This document shows positions 4,527-61,946 of a stretch of DNA of 64,000 nucleotides, one piece after another. This DNA comes from an uncultured Acidobacteriaceae bacterium (GTDB lineage: Bacteria > Acidobacteriota > Terriglobia > Terriglobales > Acidobacteriaceae). The stretch lies in the NCBI GenBank assembly GCA_963826875.1, contig CAWGYP010000023.1, positions 458,602 to 522,601 on the forward strand, in the 5' to 3' direction. The notes beneath the pieces were generated by a model, which searched no databases, was not told the DNA's origin, and saw only the letters and a list, made by a program, of their open reading frames with translations. Each line of letters begins with the position of its first letter. Positions within the stretch are counted from its first letter, which is position 1. The position numbers and the translations under genes were made by a program.

Positions 4527-4739
4527 CAGAGCAAGTGCTTACGGTTATGATGATCGCTGGCTGTTAAATATATGGGACCGAGCTTTCCCGGTCGTTCCCG
4601 TGTCACTGGCAACTCGGAAGTAATCCCGAAAAATGCGGTTCTGTCGCCGGCCATTCGGGAGGAACCCCCATTCCATTGCACGGGCGGAACTCTCACCCTC
4701 CTGGAACGACCGAGCGCGGCCCCTGAGTAAACTGACTGC

Positions 4740-6005
4740 ATGCTCCGGCGAACTACTCTCGTAATCTTCCTGGTCGCGCTCTCTGCACAAGCCCTTCCGC
4801 AAACAACGCCCAAACCAAAACAGAACTTCGAAGAAGCCCTCATACAGGCCCGCAAGCCTCTTGTATTGAGTAACGGTAAACTCCTTGGCACGGGGGCTAT
4901 CCTTCTCAATGCTGCTGTTCAGCAATCCCGCTTCGTAATGCTTGGCGAAGATCATCTGACCCACGAAATCCCGCAGTTCGCCGCTGCCCTTTGCGACATC
5001 ATGCACCCGGATGCTTACGCAGTCGAGGCTGCACCGTCCGCTGCGCACTTCGTCAACGGCCTGCTGGAAAAGCCCAATCGCTTAGAAATGATGGCCGCGC
5101 GCAGCAAGGCGTATCCCAACAATATGGCCTTTCTCGACATTCGCGAAGAAAACGATCTTGCCGTCCACTGCGCCGCATCCTCGCGCAACCCGAACTTCTC
5201 ACTCTGGGGTCTCGATCAGGAGTATCTCGGATCTGCAAGCACGTTGTTGGCTGCCATGGCCGCGAGCAATCCTGGTCCAAGGTCCCGCGCCGCAATCACA
5301 GCTGCACAGGTCGAAGACCGCCTCGCAGAAGCCGAAGCACGCCGCACCGGGGACTTCGGCAAACTATTCCTGCTGGCAGCGACAGATGCCGATGTGCAGG
5401 CGCTACAGACAGCGATCGATACAGACGGCAACGCGGAAACCCAAGACCTTCTCCACGAGTTCACTGTCTCGCACAGAATTTATCGCCTGAATAAAGAAGG
5501 CTCGCCCGATTCCAATCTCGTCCGCGCAGAACTTCTCAAGCAACATTTCCTTGCCAGCTATGCCCCCTTCAAGCATCAAAGTCCGGCCCCACGCATATTC
5601 TTCAAACTAGGCGATAACCATACGGGGAAGGGCTTCAATTACACGCATGAACTGAATCTCGGAAACTTCGTCGCTGAGGTGGCAGCGGGAGAGCAGGCAC
5701 AGTCCTTGCACATTTTCGTGTTGGGTGCACGCGGGGAGCACTTCGCCATAAATGGATATGGCAGGCCCTTGGGCCAACAACCCTTTGTCCTCTCCGACGA
5801 CCCAGACTACAAATGGCTTGCCCCTGCCGTCGCCAACATGCTGCCACAAGGGCCTGTGGGCGTCGGGACTACGCTGACCCTTTTCGATCTGCGCCAACTC
5901 CGTTACCGGGGTTTAGATCTGTCCCGTGAGTGGGAACACGCGATCTACAGTTACGACATTTGCGTCCTCATGCCCGAATTGACAGTAGCCTCTCCCATCG
6001 AATAA
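4740..6005 (+). CDS. Hypothetical secreted protein
   Basis: 421-aa ORF with signal peptide MLRRTTLVIFLVALSAQALPQ. I did not recognise a family. Confidence 0.6.
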   Translation: MLRRTTLVIFLVALSAQALPQTTPKPKQNFEEALIQARKPLVLSNGKLLGTGAILLNAAVQQSRFVMLGEDHLTHEIPQFAAALCDIMHPDAYAVEAAPSAAHFVNGLLEKPNRLEMMAARSKAYPNNMAFLDIREENDLAVHCAASSRNPNFSLWGLDQEYLGSASTLLAAMAASNPGPRSRAAITAAQVEDRLAEAEARRTGDFGKLFLLAATDADVQALQTAIDTDGNAETQDLLHEFTVSHRIYRLNKEGSPDSNLVRAELLKQHFLASYAPFKHQSPAPRIFFKLGDNHTGKGFNYTHELNLGNFVAEVAAGEQAQSLHIFVLGARGEHFAINGYGRPLGQQPFVLSDDPDYKWLAPAVANMLPQGPVGVGTTLTLFDLRQLRYRGLDLSREWEHAIYSYDICVLMPELTVASPIE

Positions 6006-6031
6006 TCAGCTCCGACCAGGCTCTGGTTATG

Positions 6032-6085
6032 ACCGCCCACCCGGAAGTTACCCCAAAACGGGTGTAATGTCCGGGTTGGCGACAA
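6032..6085. repeat. Intergenic hairpin repeat, copy A (modules M1+M2)
   Basis: ACCGCCCACCCGGAAGTTACCCCAAAACGGGTGTAATGTCCGGGTTGGCGAC. Nearly identical to copy B. CCCGGAAGTTAC can pair with GTAATGTCCGGG (10 of 12). Confidence 0.85.
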
Positions 6086-6291
6086 TACAATCGGAACCCG
6101 AAGACCAGGGCGAGTCGGAGCTGGAAACGCGCGCATTGGCCTGTCATTCAGTGAGGATCGAACTTGCCGAAAACCCGTCTTTTCTGGGCGTTCGCAACTC
6201 GCACCTTGCGCTCGCGACGTATCATCTAGATAGATTTTGGAGTCCGAATCGAGTCGATGAGAAGCAGGGTCCTTTGAGCGGAGCGACGACC

Positions 6292-6912
6292 ATGATCAGG
6301 CGCATTCTTTTCGCACTCGCCATCTCGACAGTTCCGCCAGTCCTTGCCTATGCCATCGGCGATTCGCCGATCCAAACGGTTGAGATTGCACCTCTTTTCT
6401 ATCAGCGGTTCGCCTGTACGGAGCATGTGAACGGCGAGCTAAGTGATCTCGGTGATGCGCTCGGCTCGGATTGTCTCGTTCTAGGTGGTATGGGCGGGTC
6501 CAAGGGAATGATGCGGCTCTACAAGACAAACGGTGTAACCAACGACGACTGGTATAGCTGGCATGTTGAAGTCCACGCGCCCTTTGATGGGGTTGTTATC
6601 GAGGTCGCGAAAAATAGCACAACTAACACTCCAGGAAATGCAGGACAACCGCCTCCCGGTTACATCGAGTTCCAACGAGCAGATGGAGTGGTCGTGGTAT
6701 ATGCCCATCTCGATGACATAAGAGTGCGCCAAGGCGATCACGTCGGCGTGGGACAAGTGGTTGCTTTGGACGGAAATAATGGAACCGCTAAGAATCCCCA
6801 TGTGCATGTCGGTGCGTATCGCGGCAAGAAGCCTCTGCAAATCCGTTGGGACCTAGCTGCAGAGGGTCGCATCCAGACGCTGGCTCATCCTCAGCAGCAG
6901 CCGCATCCTTGA
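6292..6912 (+). CDS. M23 (LytM)-like peptidase domain protein, secreted
   Basis: Start moved to ATG 6292 (MIRRILFALAISTVPPVLAYA signal). VVVYAHLDDIRVRQGDHVGVGQVVALDGNNGTAKNPHVHVG matches the C-terminal M23 pattern including HxH. Confidence 0.6.
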   Translation: MIRRILFALAISTVPPVLAYAIGDSPIQTVEIAPLFYQRFACTEHVNGELSDLGDALGSDCLVLGGMGGSKGMMRLYKTNGVTNDDWYSWHVEVHAPFDGVVIEVAKNSTTNTPGNAGQPPPGYIEFQRADGVVVVYAHLDDIRVRQGDHVGVGQVVALDGNNGTAKNPHVHVGAYRGKKPLQIRWDLAAEGRIQTLAHPQQQPHP

Positions 6913-6965
6913 CGGTTCCCACAATACGGCGTTCTGAGCAATTACGACGTTGTTACCCTTCTCCC

Positions 6966-7079
6966 CCGATGCACTCATCGATCGTGGCTGGCCGAGAAAT
7001 CTCGTCTCCCACGCTTTCGGGCGAGTCACCGCCCACCCGGAAGTTACCCCAAAACCGGTGTAATGTCCGCGTTGGCGAC
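6966..7079. repeat. Intergenic hairpin repeat, copy B (long form: leader + M1 + M2)
   Basis: CCGATGCACTCATCGATCGTGGCTGGCCGAGAAATCT...GTCACCGCCCACCCGGAAGTTACCCCAAAACCGGTGTAATGTCCGCGTTGGCGAC. The leader part is shared with copy C and the M1+M2 part with copy A. Confidence 0.85.
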
Positions 7080-7229
7080 GATCCGCCCAGAACTCAGAAG
7101 GGTGCCTCATTCCCGCTCGATGAGGGCATTGCCCGTTCTCGTCAATCGAGGACCAAGTGTGAAATCATGTTTGACGGATACCATACCTTCTCATCCGCTG
7201 AGCCGCGAGTTTCTGCGAAGGAGGATTCC

Positions 7230-8009
7230 GTGTTCAAGCGTGCTCTCCAGTTGTTGGTGGCGGCCTGGCTGACCACAGGTATGTTGTGGGCGGCGAGCGA
7301 TCCATTTGTCGGAAAATGGAAGCTCGATCCTTCCCAAAGCAAGGAAACTGACCAAATGAAGATCGAAGCCGCCGGCCCAAACAGGTACGTCTTCGACTTT
7401 GGCGGTGGTGGAACAGAGACGATTGTGGTGGACGGGACCGAACAGCCCGGCCACTCAGCAACCACCGTGTCGGTTACCCCCGTCGAGCCCAATACTTGGA
7501 AGTTCGTCCGCAAGAAGGACGGGTACACAGTAATGACGGCCATCTTCAAGCTTTCAGCGGACGCCAACACGCTCACCGACAACTTCACGGCCTCTCGGCC
7601 CGATGGGTGGACATTCAGCATCGATTACGTGTTCACGCGAACGGCAGGGAGCTCGGGTTTCGCGGGCACGTGGGAAAGTGCGAACGAGAAGGTAAATTCA
7701 GTCTACGAACTTGAGATTCAGCCTTACCAGGGGGACGGCCTCGCACTCTTCCTTCCTGCGGAACATTCCGCCAGAAAGATGAAATTCGACGGGAAAGATT
7801 ATCCCGTCCAGGGCGCCGAGGTTAAGCCGGGCTCCGCGTCGTCGGGACACCAGGTGAACGACCATACTCTGGAAATAACCGACAAGATCAACGGCAGGAC
7901 CACAGACACGCAGCGGATCACGCTTTCTCCCGACCTGAACACGTTGACGATGACCGTTCAACAGGCGGGTCACAGCAAGCCGGATGCATTGGTGTTCAAT
8001 CGGGAATAG
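7230..8009 (+). CDS. Hypothetical secreted beta-rich protein
   Basis: The long ORF 6846-8009 was trimmed to GTG 7230, preceded by AGGAGGA. VFKRALQLLVAAWLTTGMLWA looks like a signal peptide. The region upstream of 7230 is occupied by repeat copy B. Confidence 0.6.
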   Translation: MFKRALQLLVAAWLTTGMLWAASDPFVGKWKLDPSQSKETDQMKIEAAGPNRYVFDFGGGGTETIVVDGTEQPGHSATTVSVTPVEPNTWKFVRKKDGYTVMTAIFKLSADANTLTDNFTASRPDGWTFSIDYVFTRTAGSSGFAGTWESANEKVNSVYELEIQPYQGDGLALFLPAEHSARKMKFDGKDYPVQGAEVKPGSASSGHQVNDHTLEITDKINGRTTDTQRITLSPDLNTLTMTVQQAGHSKPDALVFNRE

Positions 8010-8064
8010 AAGAGGGCGTTGGTGATGTCTTACCAGGGCACCATTCTTAGTGAGCGGATAGTCG

Positions 8065-8158
8065 CCGATGCACTCTTCGAGCGTGGCTGGCCGAGAAATC
8101 TTTGTCTCCCACAATTCCGGTCGGGTCACCGCCCACACGAAAGTTACCCCAAAACGGG
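8065..8158. repeat. Intergenic hairpin repeat, copy C (leader + M1 only)
   Basis: CCGATGCACTCTTCGAGCGTGGCTGGCCGAGAAATCT...GTCACCGCCCACACGAAAGTTACCCCAAAACGG. It stops in the loop, with no adjacent M2 module. Confidence 0.8.
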
Positions 8159-8379
8159 GAGATGAGGGGACAGCATACCGTTCCCCCCGAAACCGCCGTT
8201 AATAAGTATGCTGTCCCTTTGTCTCCCTAGCCGTGAATCATCCAATTCGTCAACTGCCAAAAGAATCCCAGCCTCTCAAAAGAGGCATTATTCCGGTGCG
8301 CTCTCGCCGAGGGCTACGAGCGAAGAAAAACAGCGACGCTCCGGATTCCGGTCGGTTTACGGCCAACCAAGAAGTAGCG

Positions 8380-8425
8380 CCAAAACGGCGTCACTTCCGA
8401 GTTGGCCACAACCCTACCGAGATGT
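8380..8425. repeat. Intergenic hairpin repeat, copy E (M2 only)
   Basis: CCAAAACGGCGTCACTTCCGAGTTGGCCACAACCCTACCGAGATG aligns with the M2 modules of copies A, B and F. GTCACTTCCGAG is near-complementary to the M1 core. Confidence 0.7.
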
Positions 8426-8524
8426 ACCCTGGACGCATAACATGCTCAGGAGCCCACGATTCAGAGCTTTTCTGATGTGCTCCCGCAGCAGGTGGACACA
8501 GACCTTTTTGTCTCGAGGTGCGCG

Positions 8525-8749
8525 ATGAGTCGTACTTTCAACGCGGTGATGCGAGTGATCAGTAGCCTCATCGGTGTCTTGATGGTTCTGATGGGAGGGA
8601 TCTGGATTCTGCAGGGGCTGAATCTTGCTTGGGGCTCTCTTAGTCGCAGCTTCATGCAAGGCGATCAACATTGGGTGTTCTACGGCGTAATCATGCTGAT
8701 TGTCGGAGTGTGTCAGGTCGTTTGGAGCAACACCGGTCAACGGGAATGA
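8525..8749 (+). CDS. Small two-helix membrane protein
   Basis: 74 aa from ATG 8525. Two hydrophobic spans: VISSLIGVLMVLMGGIWIL and VFYGVIMLIVGVCQVVW. Confidence 0.5.
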   Translation: MSRTFNAVMRVISSLIGVLMVLMGGIWILQGLNLAWGSLSRSFMQGDQHWVFYGVIMLIVGVCQVVWSNTGQRE

Positions 8750-8807
8750 GATCCGTCGACCATACGGACAAAGAATTGACGACTCGTCATGGCTCAGCGG
8801 CTGATCC

Positions 8808-8850
8808 GAAACGACGTAACTTCCGAGTTGGCGACCATACTCCCAGAATG
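8808..8850. repeat. Intergenic hairpin repeat, copy F (M2 only)
   Basis: CGAAACGACGTAACTTCCGAGTTGGCGACCATACTCCCAGAATG. Shares about 40 nt with copy E. Confidence 0.7.
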
Positions 8851-8885
8851 AATGTCTTGAAGGGCAAACCGTTCCGGGCGCACGC

Positions 8886-9380
8886 TCACTGATTTGCGGG
8901 CCATTCAAAGGGGTGCTCCAACAATTCGCGGGCCTGATTGATCGCTCCGTCAGTGTTATCGCCGGTCTCAATTGCTAACTGGTATTGCGCAACGGCCCGT
9001 TCGCGTTGGCTAGTAATGTCAAAGATCTTCCCGATCTGAATGTGGCTCCAGGCTTTGGTCCAAACGGGATTCCCATCTCCGGCCAGCGAGTCGCGATAGG
9101 CGTCCACGCTTGCCTGGTAGGCGTGCTTTTCGAGAAGGAACTCCGCAATGCAATACCTCGCCAGCGAGCTCCGCGGAGTCGATTTGAGGTCACTGTGGCC
9201 CCAAAGGTACCGCTCCCACCGTGATTCCATGTTGTCATTGGCGTAGTCGGACAGCGCTTTATTCCGGTCGCAATCCGAGATATATCCATGCGCACTGATC
9301 TGAGCAAACGACGGTGCCGCTACCGCCAGCATCATGATCGCCATTTCAACAAAACAAAGATTCCGATTGGACAGTGTCAT
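8886..9380 (-). CDS. Hypothetical secreted protein with TPR-like helical repeats
   Basis: Start moved to ATG 9380, preceded by AAAGGAGGG. Signal peptide MAIMMLAVAAPSFAQ. Helical repeat-like segments (AYQASVDAYRDSL, RAVAQYQLAIETGDN). Confidence 0.6.
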   Translation of the reverse strand: MTLSNRNLCFVEMAIMMLAVAAPSFAQISAHGYISDCDRNKALSDYANDNMESRWERYLWGHSDLKSTPRSSLARYCIAEFLLEKHAYQASVDAYRDSLAGDGNPVWTKAWSHIQIGKIFDITSQRERAVAQYQLAIETGDNTDGAINQARELLEHPFEWPANQ

Positions 9381-9608
9381 AACCCTCCTTTCAGCGATGC
9401 TATGACGTGGGTGCTCTCGCAAGCAAACTCGATGGCTCACGCCCTTGAATTTGACACGTTAACCTTCAACTTTGTTTGATGGACGACCTCCCGATCGAAA
9501 CGATAGCAAGTGTTAATCTCGCGAGTCCAATCGCCCTATCTATCCTGTGGGAACGAGGGCCTAGTCACGAGCGTTCGCTGGCAACCGTAGCACCTTATTT
9601 ACGCATTA

Positions 9609-9628
9609 CCGGCCACCCGGAAGTTACC
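9609..9628. repeat. Intergenic hairpin repeat, copy D (M1 fragment)
   Basis: CCGGCCACCCGGAAGTTACC matches the M1 core of copies A and B. Confidence 0.55.
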
Positions 9629-9836: not shown

Positions 9837-10037
9837 ATGACGAAGCCTTCTGATCTGGTGCAGGGCACGCTTGACTTGCTCATCCTCAAAATCATCAGCC
9901 TCCAACCAATGCACGGATGGGCGATTGCTCAGCGGATTCAACAGCTCTCAAGCGATGTTCTTCGCGTCAATCAGAGCGCGCTCTATCCCGCCTTACATCG
10001 TTTGGAGCATCAAGGAGCGCCAAGCTTTCTTGGATGA
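9837..10037 (+). pseudogene. Truncated PadR-family regulator (N-terminal 60 residues only)
   Basis: MTKPSDLVQGTLDLLILKIISLQPMHGWAIAQRIQQLSSDVLRVNQSALYPALHRLEHQG, then APSFLG-stop. The intact paralogs in this window continue WI..KWG.SENNRKA.FY. The wing and C-terminal helix are missing. Confidence 0.7.
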
Positions 10038-11367
10038 GTCGGTCGCCCAGAGGGAGCCCTACCGTGTCCACTCACGCCTGGCTTTTGCGGCATTCTCCTC
10101 AATACTCAAGCTCACGCGACGCAATGCAACGCCCCTAAGCATTGCATTGCTGTTGCTGGCGACATCCGTGCCAGCCCAACAGCTCCGGCAACCCGCGGCT
10201 ACCGATGCGCAAGCAAGACAGGCAGCTATCAGCATTCTGCTTCGCGCTGAACGTTCCTATAGTCTCCTTGACACTCCGGTCGACATGCAGGCGTGGCATT
10301 TGGCCGCAGAGGCTACCTACGACTCCCCGGATGGATTATCGCTTGGGCAGCGACACTATGAAATATTTTGGGGAGGACCCGGAAAAGTAGAGCTGATCTC
10401 CTCCGGAGATGGGATAGGGGAAACATTCTGGGAGAGTGTCGACCGCCGATTCATCACCGACGACCTACCTTCTACTCCAGATACTGCTTCCGAGAACGCC
10501 GTTTCTCTGCCGGCCGGTTCCTCCGACGATTGGAATACTCGCCACAATCTCCTCATGAATGCTTCGCTTAATCTTCTTGACAAGCTCCTGAACCCGCTCC
10601 CCTTCTACACGCCTGATACTCTCGAGAAATGGCCTGTGGTTGAAGTGGTTACAAACGAGAACGGCGACCACGAGCAATGCGCCCGGTACGCGGTGAAAGC
10701 TCCGCCTCCTGGCGGCGGAAGCGGCCAGCGGCCGCCTCTGGGTACTACGGAAACAGTCTGCATCGATGAGGACACGGGAGCGCTAAGGAGAGTCATCCAC
10801 TCATTCGGGCAGAGCTTGGTTCTATCGTCAACCTCTTACGACGACATCATTCCTTTTCAGGGCCGTTTTCTTGCAAGACACATTCGCAGCACGCGAAATG
10901 GAAAGCTGGCGTTGGAGATTAACATCAGCAAGGCGGATGCGGTTCCGCAGCTCGCGGATGCTGACTACATGCCAACGCGCAAAACTCTACGGTGGCACAT
11001 CATGCCATATCCTCCTTCCGCCCATGTAATGGTGGCTTCTGTCCGCTCCTCCAGGTTCCTGGGTTGTAGTCGTTCCCCTTCCAATGCGGTTGCGCCAGAG
11101 GTGGCTACTGAACACCTGTTGAAGGAAACGGTCGAGCCCGGTACGCAAGCGAAAAACCAGCCTGTGAAAGGAGGGGTCGTGCTTCTTCTGACCATTGGTC
11201 CTGATGGCCAGGTTCTGGATGATAAGGTGCTTTCGACTCCCGATCCCATTCAAACCCAGACCGCGGAGCATTCCGTCGCTTCTTGGAAGTATCGGCCGTT
11301 TGTGAAGGGAAACACCGCGGAATGCGCGGAGACCACAGCATTCGTCGCGTTCTCCGCAAACAAATGA
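10030..11367 (+). CDS. Secreted protein with C-terminal TonB-like domain
   Basis: ORF 9871-11367. Hydrophobic signal-like SIALLLLATSVPAQQ. The C-terminus KGGVVLLLTIGPDGQVLDDKVLSTPDP...AEHSVASWKYRPFVKGN resembles TonB_C. The start (TTG 10030) is uncertain. Confidence 0.5.
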   Translation: MDESVAQREPYRVHSRLAFAAFSSILKLTRRNATPLSIALLLLATSVPAQQLRQPAATDAQARQAAISILLRAERSYSLLDTPVDMQAWHLAAEATYDSPDGLSLGQRHYEIFWGGPGKVELISSGDGIGETFWESVDRRFITDDLPSTPDTASENAVSLPAGSSDDWNTRHNLLMNASLNLLDKLLNPLPFYTPDTLEKWPVVEVVTNENGDHEQCARYAVKAPPPGGGSGQRPPLGTTETVCIDEDTGALRRVIHSFGQSLVLSSTSYDDIIPFQGRFLARHIRSTRNGKLALEINISKADAVPQLADADYMPTRKTLRWHIMPYPPSAHVMVASVRSSRFLGCSRSPSNAVAPEVATEHLLKETVEPGTQAKNQPVKGGVVLLLTIGPDGQVLDDKVLSTPDPIQTQTAEHSVASWKYRPFVKGNTAECAETTAFVAFSANK

Positions 11368-61456: not shown

Positions 61457-61946
61457 GTAACTCGGCACGGGAGTGCCGGGTACGTCGGGGTTTACGAGGC
61501 AAGTCCCGAAGGGACGGCACAGCCTGTAGCCCGGCACGACAATGCCGGCAGCTCACAGGGTTTACGAGGCGAGTCCCGAAGGGACGGCACAACCTGTAGC
61601 CCGGCACGGCAGTGCCGGGTACGTCAGGGTTTACGAGGCAAGTCCCGAAGGGACGGCACATTGCCTGTAGCCCGGCACGACAATGCCGGCCGCTCACAGG
61701 GTTTACGAGGCGAGTCCCGAAGGGACGGCACAACCTGTAGCCCGGCACGGCAGTGCCGGGTACGTCAGGGTTTACGAGGCAAGTCCCGAAGGGACGGCAC
61801 AGCCTGTAGCCCGGCACGACAATGCCGGCCGCTCACAGGGTTTACGAGGCGAGTCCCGAAGGGACGGCACAACCTGTAGCCCGGCACGGCAGTGCCGGGT
61901 ACGTCAGGGTTTACGAGGCAAGTCCCGAAGGGACGGCACATTGCCT
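61457..61946. repeat. Tandem array of seven 69-71-bp hairpin units (alternating A/B subtypes)
   Basis: Units start at 61457, 61526, 61596, 61667, 61737, 61806 and 61876. A unit: GTAGCCCGGCACGGCAGTGCCGGGTACGTCAGGGTTTACGAGGCAAGTCCCGAAGGGACGGCAC... The B unit has CCGGCACGACAATGCCGG. U3 equals U7 and U4 equals U6. Confidence 0.9.

Follow-up and report, generated by a model that had tools for sequence, protein, structure and literature searches.

Genus-specific nested hairpin repeats appear to bound exchangeable gene modules in Acidobacteriaceae

The window analyzed here is a 64,000-nucleotide stretch of the genome of an uncultured Acidobacteriaceae bacterium (GCA_963826875.1, contig CAWGYP010000023.1, forward-strand positions 458,602 to 522,601), in which seven copies or fragments of one repeat lie among short genes between positions 4590 and 9628. 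The repeat appears to belong to an undescribed gene-shuffling system that is like integrons and the dif modules of Acinetobacter yet is neither. We infer that the repeat is a DNA recombination-site element, neither an RNA nor an integron attC site, and its candidate enzyme is YB, a tyrosine recombinase whose gene is embedded in repeat sequence; we regard the recombination-site reading with YB as the enzyme as evenly balanced between right and wrong. The repeat units co-orient within arrays, and the modules between them have moved between species with breakpoints at defined positions of the repeat.

An alignment of all genomic copies with their flanks reveals three nested layers of dyad symmetry. 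The inner layer is a hairpin made of a 5′ arm, a loop and a 3′ arm (the M1 module, loop and M2 module of the original prediction), the middle layer is a stem formed by GTTCCGGGCGG and CCGCCCGGAAC, and the outer layer, present in some copies, reaches ~50 nt farther outward at both ends, where it closes with an inverted 17-bp motif, GCCAATGCACTCATCGA. This motif has 25 genomic matches at two or fewer mismatches versus ~1 expected by chance. The original prediction had described a unit of ~55 nt; the conserved unit is larger, with a core that is an 82-nt nested palindrome and a full length of ~170–190 nt in complete copies such as copy B.

We built a covariance model from the repeat family and computed structure statistics from 64 forward-strand copies from many genomes. 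The covariation that the original prediction had proposed to look for is present, with arm pairing kept through change: standard pairs make up 82.8% of the pair cells of the hairpin versus 31–46% in shifted registers, two-sided changes occur at 15 hairpin pairs, and none of 500 shuffles reached the observed values. The two strands are not equivalent, as the forward score is about twice the reverse score (for example, 92 versus 45 bits).

In the consensus of these 64 copies, the four stem halves are versions of a single 11–15-nt arm with the core TTCCGGG..GCGG, placed in alternating orientation. The middle-left arm reads GTTCCGGgCGg, the reverse complement of the 5′ arm CTTCCGGgTgGGCGG, the 3′ arm TGTCCGGGTTGGCG and the reverse complement of the middle-right arm GTTCCGGgCGG. 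Poorly conserved centers occur at model positions 12–16 and 66–71, one per hairpin foot. The former is the spacer of site L (~gATcA) and the latter the spacer of site R (~GACaAT), the two sites being inversely oriented with an apex of ~40 nt between them. Since one arm recurs four times, each hairpin foot can be read as an arm-spacer-arm core site, with arms of 11–15 nt and spacers of ~4–6 nt (compared with the 11-6-11 layout of pdif) and two such units per repeat. Arm-spacer-arm is the core-site layout of Xer/Cre-type tyrosine recombinases, and by analogy the hairpin feet would be core sites for enzymes of this type.

The punctuated region of the window (4590–9628) and its right border are organized as follows.

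4590–4666 (+): degenerate repeat copy (copy 0), 3′ arm truncated at 4645; covariance model 26.8 bits, E = 2.6e-5
4646–6030 (+): module 1, beginning right after the truncated arm of copy 0; open reading frame (ORF) 4740–6005, 421 aa, signal-peptide-like N-terminus
6008–6135 (+): repeat copy A, core 6019–6098; 76.3 bits; own outer stem of CAGCTCCGAC paired with GTCGGAGCTG
6292–6912 (+): module 2 gene, secreted M23 peptidase with a signal-peptide-like start
6965–7133 (+): repeat copy B, full-length; 17-bp motif 6965–6981, leader, core 7013–7094, inverted 17-bp motif 7117–7133; 89.9 bits
7230–8009 (+): module 3 gene, 259 aa, signal-peptide-like N-terminus
8064–8157 (+): repeat copy C, left half only; 17-bp motif, leader, middle-left arm, 5′ arm and loop, broken right after the loop; 15.8 bits
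8157–8227 (no strand assigned): very strong hairpin with 22-nt arms, abutting broken copy C at its loop; −49.2 kcal/mol, z = −5.1
8344–8424 (+): repeat copy E, complete core; compensatory arm differences GGCCAAC...GTTGGCC; 63.9 bits
8402–8838 (+): module U74, hydrophobic 74-aa ORF (8525–8749) with its own half site F
8805–8850 (+): repeat copy F, right half only; loop, 3′ arm and middle-right arm
8886–9380 (−): 164-aa ORF on the strand opposite to the other four genes; no family match
9605–9628 (+): repeat copy D, 5′ arm fragment that stops at the would-be loop start
9837–10037 (+): truncated PadR gene, right border of the punctuated region; PadR profile positions 1–45 of 75

Much of the original prediction for this region stands. 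The repeat family is present at the places it gave, as are all five short ORFs, and the element is best regarded as non-coding and as punctuating an accessory region. Copies A and B, described as nearly identical and able to fold, share 88% identity across 66 nt, the fold of A having an energy of −32.1 kcal/mol (z = −4.2); the leader said to be common to B and C is 95% identical across 37 nt; the degenerate relative suspected near 4612–4650 corresponds to copy 0; and copy D is indeed a fragment of the first arm. Copy E had been taken for an isolated second arm and proves to be a complete hairpin whose arms compensate for each other's changes (−34.8 kcal/mol, z = −5.2).

The repeat family far exceeds chance expectation. 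The window's genome (8.77 Mb, 27 contigs) holds ~14 repeat copies, several of which are clustered at contig ends. A model search detected the repeat in 27 of 36 congeneric genomes, each with 1 to 49 matches, and in none of 24 genomes of the neighboring (sister) family; it is also absent from annotated plasmid records, and literature searches returned no description of a comparable element in Acidobacteria. Copies are strongly clustered into arrays whose cargo includes hydrolases, regulators, secreted proteins and PadR–ADOP permease pairs. Across the window and 12 fetched array segments, neighboring repeats are co-oriented in 39 of 39 cases, and among 52 repeats the flanking genes are co-oriented or opposite in ratios of 26:25 on the 5′ side and 20:31 on the 3′ side. 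The proposed rule of one gene per repeat in one orientation holds in the window only: modules in the arrays of relatives contain 1–6 genes in either orientation.

We searched the genus with the 6-kb window region and compared array segments of different genomes all-against-all (genomes, contigs and loci are designated below by G, C and L numbers, G000 being the window's genome). The earlier suggestion that the units are cassette-like is borne out, as single units were found in other species at 90–99.8% identity, well above that of ordinary genes, with breakpoints within the repeat. The window segment 4646–6030, containing the 421-aa module, is 95% identical at the nucleotide level in species G008, with homology starting at 4646. 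Module U74 (~8402–8838) recurs at 90–95% nucleotide identity in 14 other species, in differing contexts and often within their own arrays. In contrast to these moving units, the PadR fragment is only 70–75% identical in relatives. A 2.09-kb module with a 638-aa gene is found at three loci.

L075:39–2130: 2.09-kb module in G014
L052:2728–4819: 2.09-kb module in G017
L056:13109–15202: 2.09-kb module in G008

Its copies are 99.8% (G014/G017), 99.1% (G014/G008) and 98.3% (G017/G008) identical; such similarity between species, reaching 99.8% over the 2.09 kb, directly documents recent transfer.

The largest cluster of homology ends (36 of ~70) lies at model positions 66–71, just 3′ of GGCGAC, and a second group maps to positions 13–20, at the 5′ edge of the 5′ arm. 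At the base level, with a slash marking the breakpoint, the start of U74 is invariant (GGCCAC/AACCCTACCGAG), whereas the 2.09-kb module starts at GGCGAC/CATCC, within GGCGAC/CATCCGACCGGAAC, and terminates on the right at GGGCGAATCACCGC/, that is GTTCCGGGCGAATCACCGC/. Past this right end, G017 and G008 have different hairpin apices, and G014 has an insertion sequence (IS) at that point. Because the apex differs beside a 98%-identical unit, apex and gene units are exchanged independently, with the two hairpin feet as exchange points. The breakpoints and the IS insertion fall in the poorly conserved centers of the arm-spacer-arm units.

Tyrosine recombinases represent 5 of the 146 ORFs in the array segments. 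Except for the partner of an IS91-family element, described below, the array recombinases form one family, YB, of ~328 aa. The nearest solved relatives of YB are XerC-like, XerD, XerA and XerH proteins, IntI4 being far weaker, and its catalytic residues are visible by inspection (GLRR, HxLRR, LLGH and ERY). YB genes lie within or next to arrays of G008 (three), G017, G014, G012 and G063, and fragments are present in G001 and G030. The window's genome encodes YB at two places.

G000:C3:368097–369080: YB gene adjoining a paralog of the window M23 gene (87% identical, G000:C3:369123–369782)
G000:C25:1609621–1610601: YB gene

All eight YB copies inspected in the genus are embedded in repeat sequence. 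On the 5′ side, the 17-bp motif, a spacer, the middle-left arm, the 5′ arm and the loop are followed directly by the ATG, placing the YB start codon at the beginning of the 3′ arm (ATGATCGGCCTATGGCGA versus ATGTCCGGGTTGGCGA), and another hairpin or a right half lies 3′ of the stop codon. In G017, YB occupies the apex position (5′ arm/YB...GGATAGGCGAC/CATCC). The order of the YB unit (B) and the 2.09-kb module (A) is B-A in this genome and A-IS-B in G014, a permuted order that a circular or cointegrate intermediate would explain.

We next consider 80 metagenome loci encoding YB relatives of 63–91% identity, a sample that is the counterpart of an 80-locus IS91 control. The repeat model matches at 11 of the 80 YB loci, always co-oriented with YB, versus none of the 80 IS91 loci. 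For 8 of 54 loci, versus 3 of 320 control windows, a right half of the repeat begins 14–25 nt past the YB stop codon; a left half is found upstream in 4 of 51 (3 of 320 controls). We interpret the modest enrichment of these half-repeat hidden Markov models as a result of their being genus-specific. By eye, many metagenome relatives as distant as 63% identity can be seen to have a diverged 5′-arm-like sequence ~50–60 nt before YB. Distant relatives (L167, L176, L177 and L182–L187) display a dif-like perfect palindrome, CGGTGGC-ATGGAG-GCCACCG, in codons ~3–9, which might serve the recombinase as a site of its own or as an autoregulatory operator overlapping its start. The conjugative plasmid pACIX905 of Granulicella tundricola MP5ACTX9 carries a 62%-identical YB relative (NC_015060.1, 73447–74400; L239:9031–9984), and, the strain being cultured, experiments might start from here. 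The annotation of YB relatives on acidobacterial plasmids goes no further than 'tyrosine-type recombinase/integrase'.

These observations suggest a mechanism in which each array has all its repeats pointing one way, so that a gene module would have site R on its left and an inverse site L on its right. Inverse units within each repeat and co-orientation along the array imply that modules flanked by inverse sites alternate with the 40-nt apex, which would itself behave as a tiny module. Strand exchange in the spacers would swap, insert or remove modules, also after transfer between species. The likeliest enzyme would be the dedicated Xer-like YB, with its gene within the repeat, and the window array could be served in trans by the two YB genes on C3 and C25. 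Other mobile elements, including the IS91-family element, would land at the same spacers.

This layout parallels that of dif modules, in which pdif sites are inversely oriented, C and D modules alternate and crossovers take place in the spacers (PMC13141974); particular IS families are also known to target pdif sites (PMC10132070). Both systems have accessory modules between inversely oriented sites, which here can be read as arm-spacer-arm units, two alternating module types and breakpoints at the spacers (here model positions 66–71 and 13–20, at a resolution of ~±5 nt); just as dif modules are shuffled between replicons and targeted by IS elements, modules are exchanged here and IS elements are found at the sites. 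Such a layout explains why the repeats are strictly co-oriented, why apex and gene units turn over independently and why YB sits in the apex position in G017. However, dif modules belong to Acinetobacter plasmids and the host XerC/XerD, whereas the present arrays are chromosomal and restricted to one acidobacterial genus, with two sites joined back to back in one 82-nt hairpin, 40-nt apices thus making up every other 'module', with arms of 11–15 nt and spacers of ~4–6 nt, with outer motifs in some copies and with an Xer-like recombinase gene embedded in the site. Somewhat more tentatively than the reading of the sites, and on balance doubtfully, we suggest a genus-specific chromosomal module-exchange system with double sites in one hairpin and a dedicated Xer-like recombinase whose gene, possibly including its translation start, is embedded in the site, in which modules pass near-unchanged across species. 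It would be a third independent invention of cassette shuffling beside integrons and Xer/dif.

Cassette-type exchange is well characterized in few systems (chiefly integrons and, lately, Acinetobacter dif modules), mainly in Proteobacteria and clinical settings. Here, abundant large-genome soil bacteria appear to sort accessory genes into exchangeable modules with a different site and probably a different enzyme. If true, this would provide a handle on how Acidobacteria build large, paralog-rich genomes, a new recombinase with its site as a basis for genetic tools in a phylum where manipulation is difficult and, in the form of the four alternating arms, a search pattern for similar systems elsewhere.

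Several points weigh against recombination sites operated by YB. The short spacers (~4–6 nt) and unequal arm lengths leave the core-site assignment resting on analogy. A single unit, U74, dominates the breakpoint histogram, and breakpoints are accurate to ~±5 nt only since BLAST ends are blurred by arm similarity. No inverted modules were seen, though inversely oriented sites should permit inversion, and no circle, inversion or empty site was observed as a recombination product, the evidence being comparative throughout. Copies C, D and F of the window, together with C5:17561, C25:1682759 and C1:16600, are broken at the loop and not at the feet, which a two-site model does not directly predict; such copies may mark insertions into the apex. 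The 8157–8227 hairpin abutting copy C has no second copy in the window's genome or any fetched locus and therefore does not represent a repeat family; possibly it marks one end of an insertion in the apex. The link between YB and the repeat is weak in distant metagenome relatives, of which 8–15% of loci score with the genus-specific models, and the pACIX905 relative has one weak model match (19.2 bits) ~500 nt downstream. Finally, YB is missing from the window's array and from the fetched stretches of the long arrays G005:C3, G014:C21, G008:C11, G009:C5 and G028:C2, so it could be just a cargo module, or it could act in trans.

Among the alternatives, the best-surviving one, which we nevertheless consider unlikely, is that the repeat is a non-autonomous, self-spreading derivative of the YB unit, akin to a miniature inverted-repeat transposable element (MITE), whose ends were joined after loss of the gene, so that modules would look mobile only through homologous recombination between dispersed repeats, which swaps the DNA between them. 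It would account for the repeat's left half before YB and right half behind it, for the resemblance of the 3′ arm to the first YB codons, for the inverted 17-bp motifs at the ends of full-length copies and for loop-broken half copies, which look like ends of units with other content. However, no consistent target-site duplication was found at the 17-bp motifs, and copies within a genome are 65–90% identical, arguing against a recent burst. Breakpoints fall at defined repeat positions, whereas homologous recombination would give any position; co-orientation in 39 of 39 cases is not expected from independent insertions; and the apex varies independently of 98–100% identical flanks.

A classical MITE is not supported, given the lack of consistent duplication, the divergence of the copies and the presence of inverted 17-bp motifs in some copies only. 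The repeat shares intergenic nested palindromes and long hairpins with MITEs (ERIC, Correia) and with repetitive extragenic palindromes (REPs) and bacterial interspersed mosaic elements (BIMEs). Palindromes of these types are known targets of insertion sequences. REP/BIME palindromes, however, measure 20–40 nt, number in the hundreds and go with a REP-associated tyrosine transposase (RAYT), unlike a repeat of 82–190 nt with ~14 copies per 8.8-Mb genome, found in strictly co-oriented local arrays without target-site duplication and apparently linked to a tyrosine recombinase instead of a RAYT or DDE transposase. Y1_Tnp is not among the 25 commonest families of the 146 array ORFs. With few, divergent copies and no target-site duplication seen, the original comparison with classical REP or MITE sequences is not supported.

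Less probable still is that the sites are real but worked by host XerC/XerD-type recombinases, as for pdif, with YB as mere cargo. The layout equals that of XerCD-dependent dif modules, YB is missing from many arrays, and two arm lengths per site suggest two binding partners. Against this, YB lies at fixed repeat positions in 8 of 8 copies, start codon overlap included; 5′-arm-like sequence precedes many metagenome YB relatives, down to 63% identity; and the repeat is limited to one genus, whereas host Xer proteins are universal.

IS91-family elements lie beside arrays in G001, G004 and G014. They encode a Y2 HUH transposase (NF033538, 417–430 bits versus a cut-off of 125; 417 in G001), and at the G001 array flank a tyrosine recombinase lies upstream of the transposase, for which the integron integrase is the best model at a sub-threshold 193 bits and without the IntI insert. 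Across these IS91-linked recombinases, TIGR02249 scores 183–193 bits in two stretches that skip the insert. In the window's genome, the family is represented as follows.

G000:C27:279125–281163 (L002/L003): intact IS91-family element; Y2 transposase and IntI-like, sub-threshold tyrosine recombinase
G000:C11:352365–353111 (L001): decayed recombinase

Three IS91-like copies in G014, 99.7% identical, define the termini, and the end made of GTTC plus a palindrome abuts a repeat arm in 3 of 3 cases; on G014:C2 the displaced 5′ arm reappears beyond the far side of the IS. GTTC plus a palindrome has been described for terIS, and one-ended transposition mobilizes adjacent DNA in 1–14% of events (PMC13181058). 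The repeats might accordingly be seen as end or terminator mimics of these rolling-circle transposons, with their Y2 HUH transposase and IntI-like recombinase, and the arrays as products of one-ended transposition, in line with IS91 and IS common region (ISCR) gene capture, since the elements occur at some arrays and insert without duplication beside palindromes. As an origin this is largely refuted, and we judge it very improbable. Around 80 independent Terriglobia transposase copies, the repeat model had no match in 650 kb, and the 17-bp motif was near only ~5 of the 80; in nine multi-copy genomes, the termini of this family, which is widespread in Terriglobia, are GACTTGAACGAAGCCGC... and ...CAGATACAGCACTAAGACTT, unrelated to the repeat. 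The repeat as an IS91 end or origin (oriIS or terIS) was ruled out on these three grounds. Arrays also exist in genomes without the IS, and array-rich G017, G005 and G009 have no such recombinase above 66 bits. The failure of the control indicates that the IS lands at the repeat in this genus and is not the repeat's source.

A structured RNA, whether a shared untranslated region (UTR), a stabilizer, a terminator or a small RNA, is hardly credible. The stable hairpins with covariation, a G-T wobble conserved on one strand and the 14–56 nt that separate stop codons from repeat copies in the window would suit it. However, the terminator scan found no T-runs or terminator calls after the hairpins, and at gathering score no Rfam family matched the repeats, Acido-Lenti-1 being the sole match in the window. 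Together with an orientation that ignores the genes (26 versus 25 and 20 versus 31), these results favor a DNA-level constraint on the whole array over a UTR, terminator or small RNA; breakpoints and IS insertions at the hairpin feet are likewise DNA-level events. The structured UTR or regulatory RNA offered by the original prediction, and likewise a terminator, are not supported by the terminator scan, Rfam or the orientation statistics, nor is the attC likeness that the prediction raised borne out.

Least credible of all is a sedentary chromosomal integron or an attC cluster lacking an integron integrase (CALIN): although the repeats are co-oriented imperfect hairpins of attC length between small accessory genes, and copy E (GGCCAAC...GTTGGCC) comes near RYYYAAC...GTTRRRY, the integron integrase model TIGR02249 (cut-off 265 bits) peaks at 106.6 bits in the window's genome and at no more than 109.3 bits in the array-rich G005, G008, G009, G014 and G017, with no hit on an array contig, the GTT-equivalent triplet varies (GTT, ATT, ATA, GTG or GTA) with a pair that covaries as CG, UA or UG, conservation reaches beyond the supposed R boxes, and gene orientation is independent of the sites. 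Integron arrays, including those with genus-specific repeats of the Vibrio cholerae repeat (VCR) type, share with the present arrays co-oriented imperfect palindromes, units that move singly and boundaries within the repeat. In contrast to integrons, the present arrays have no IntI, no conserved AAC/GTT and no site-oriented genes, and they combine multi-gene modules with hairpins in which both feet are conserved and carry breakpoints. On the absence of IntI above the cut-off in the genomes examined, the variable AAC/GTT and the gene orientation, attC was rejected.

Independent IS91-like insertions (L147, L149, L116, L117, L104, L085 and L121) often have a right flank close to CGGTAC(T/G)(A/G)ATC, which may be a preferred target unlike the GTTC/CTTG targets described for IS91, IS801 and IS1294. 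Adjacent pairs of tyrosine recombinases also occur as several identical copies in the window's genome (G000:C24:376282–379468, C27:341645–343119 and C11:189952–191426). At C24 the pair has a DnaG-like primase with a zinc finger and Toprim as its neighbor, and a repeat copy (C24:380233–380314) lies 0.8 kb away. These pairs probably belong to a separate mobile element.

As for the individual gene products of the window, the signal-peptide-like starts of the first three module proteins were judged directly from the translated sequence. The 421-aa protein (4740–6005) has no Pfam or NCBIfam match, and the 259-aa protein has weak matches to CBM77 and TIGR03066, both under their cut-offs, and nothing else. 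The border PadR gene (9837–10037) is cut behind the recognition helix, and an ORF overlapping it (9871–11367) shows a weak TonB_C match at its end. Farther along the window, three tandem Acido-Lenti-1 RNA copies (RF01687) lie at 61572–61899 (−), each scoring 45.2 bits versus a gathering threshold of 37, with a spacing of ~140 nt.

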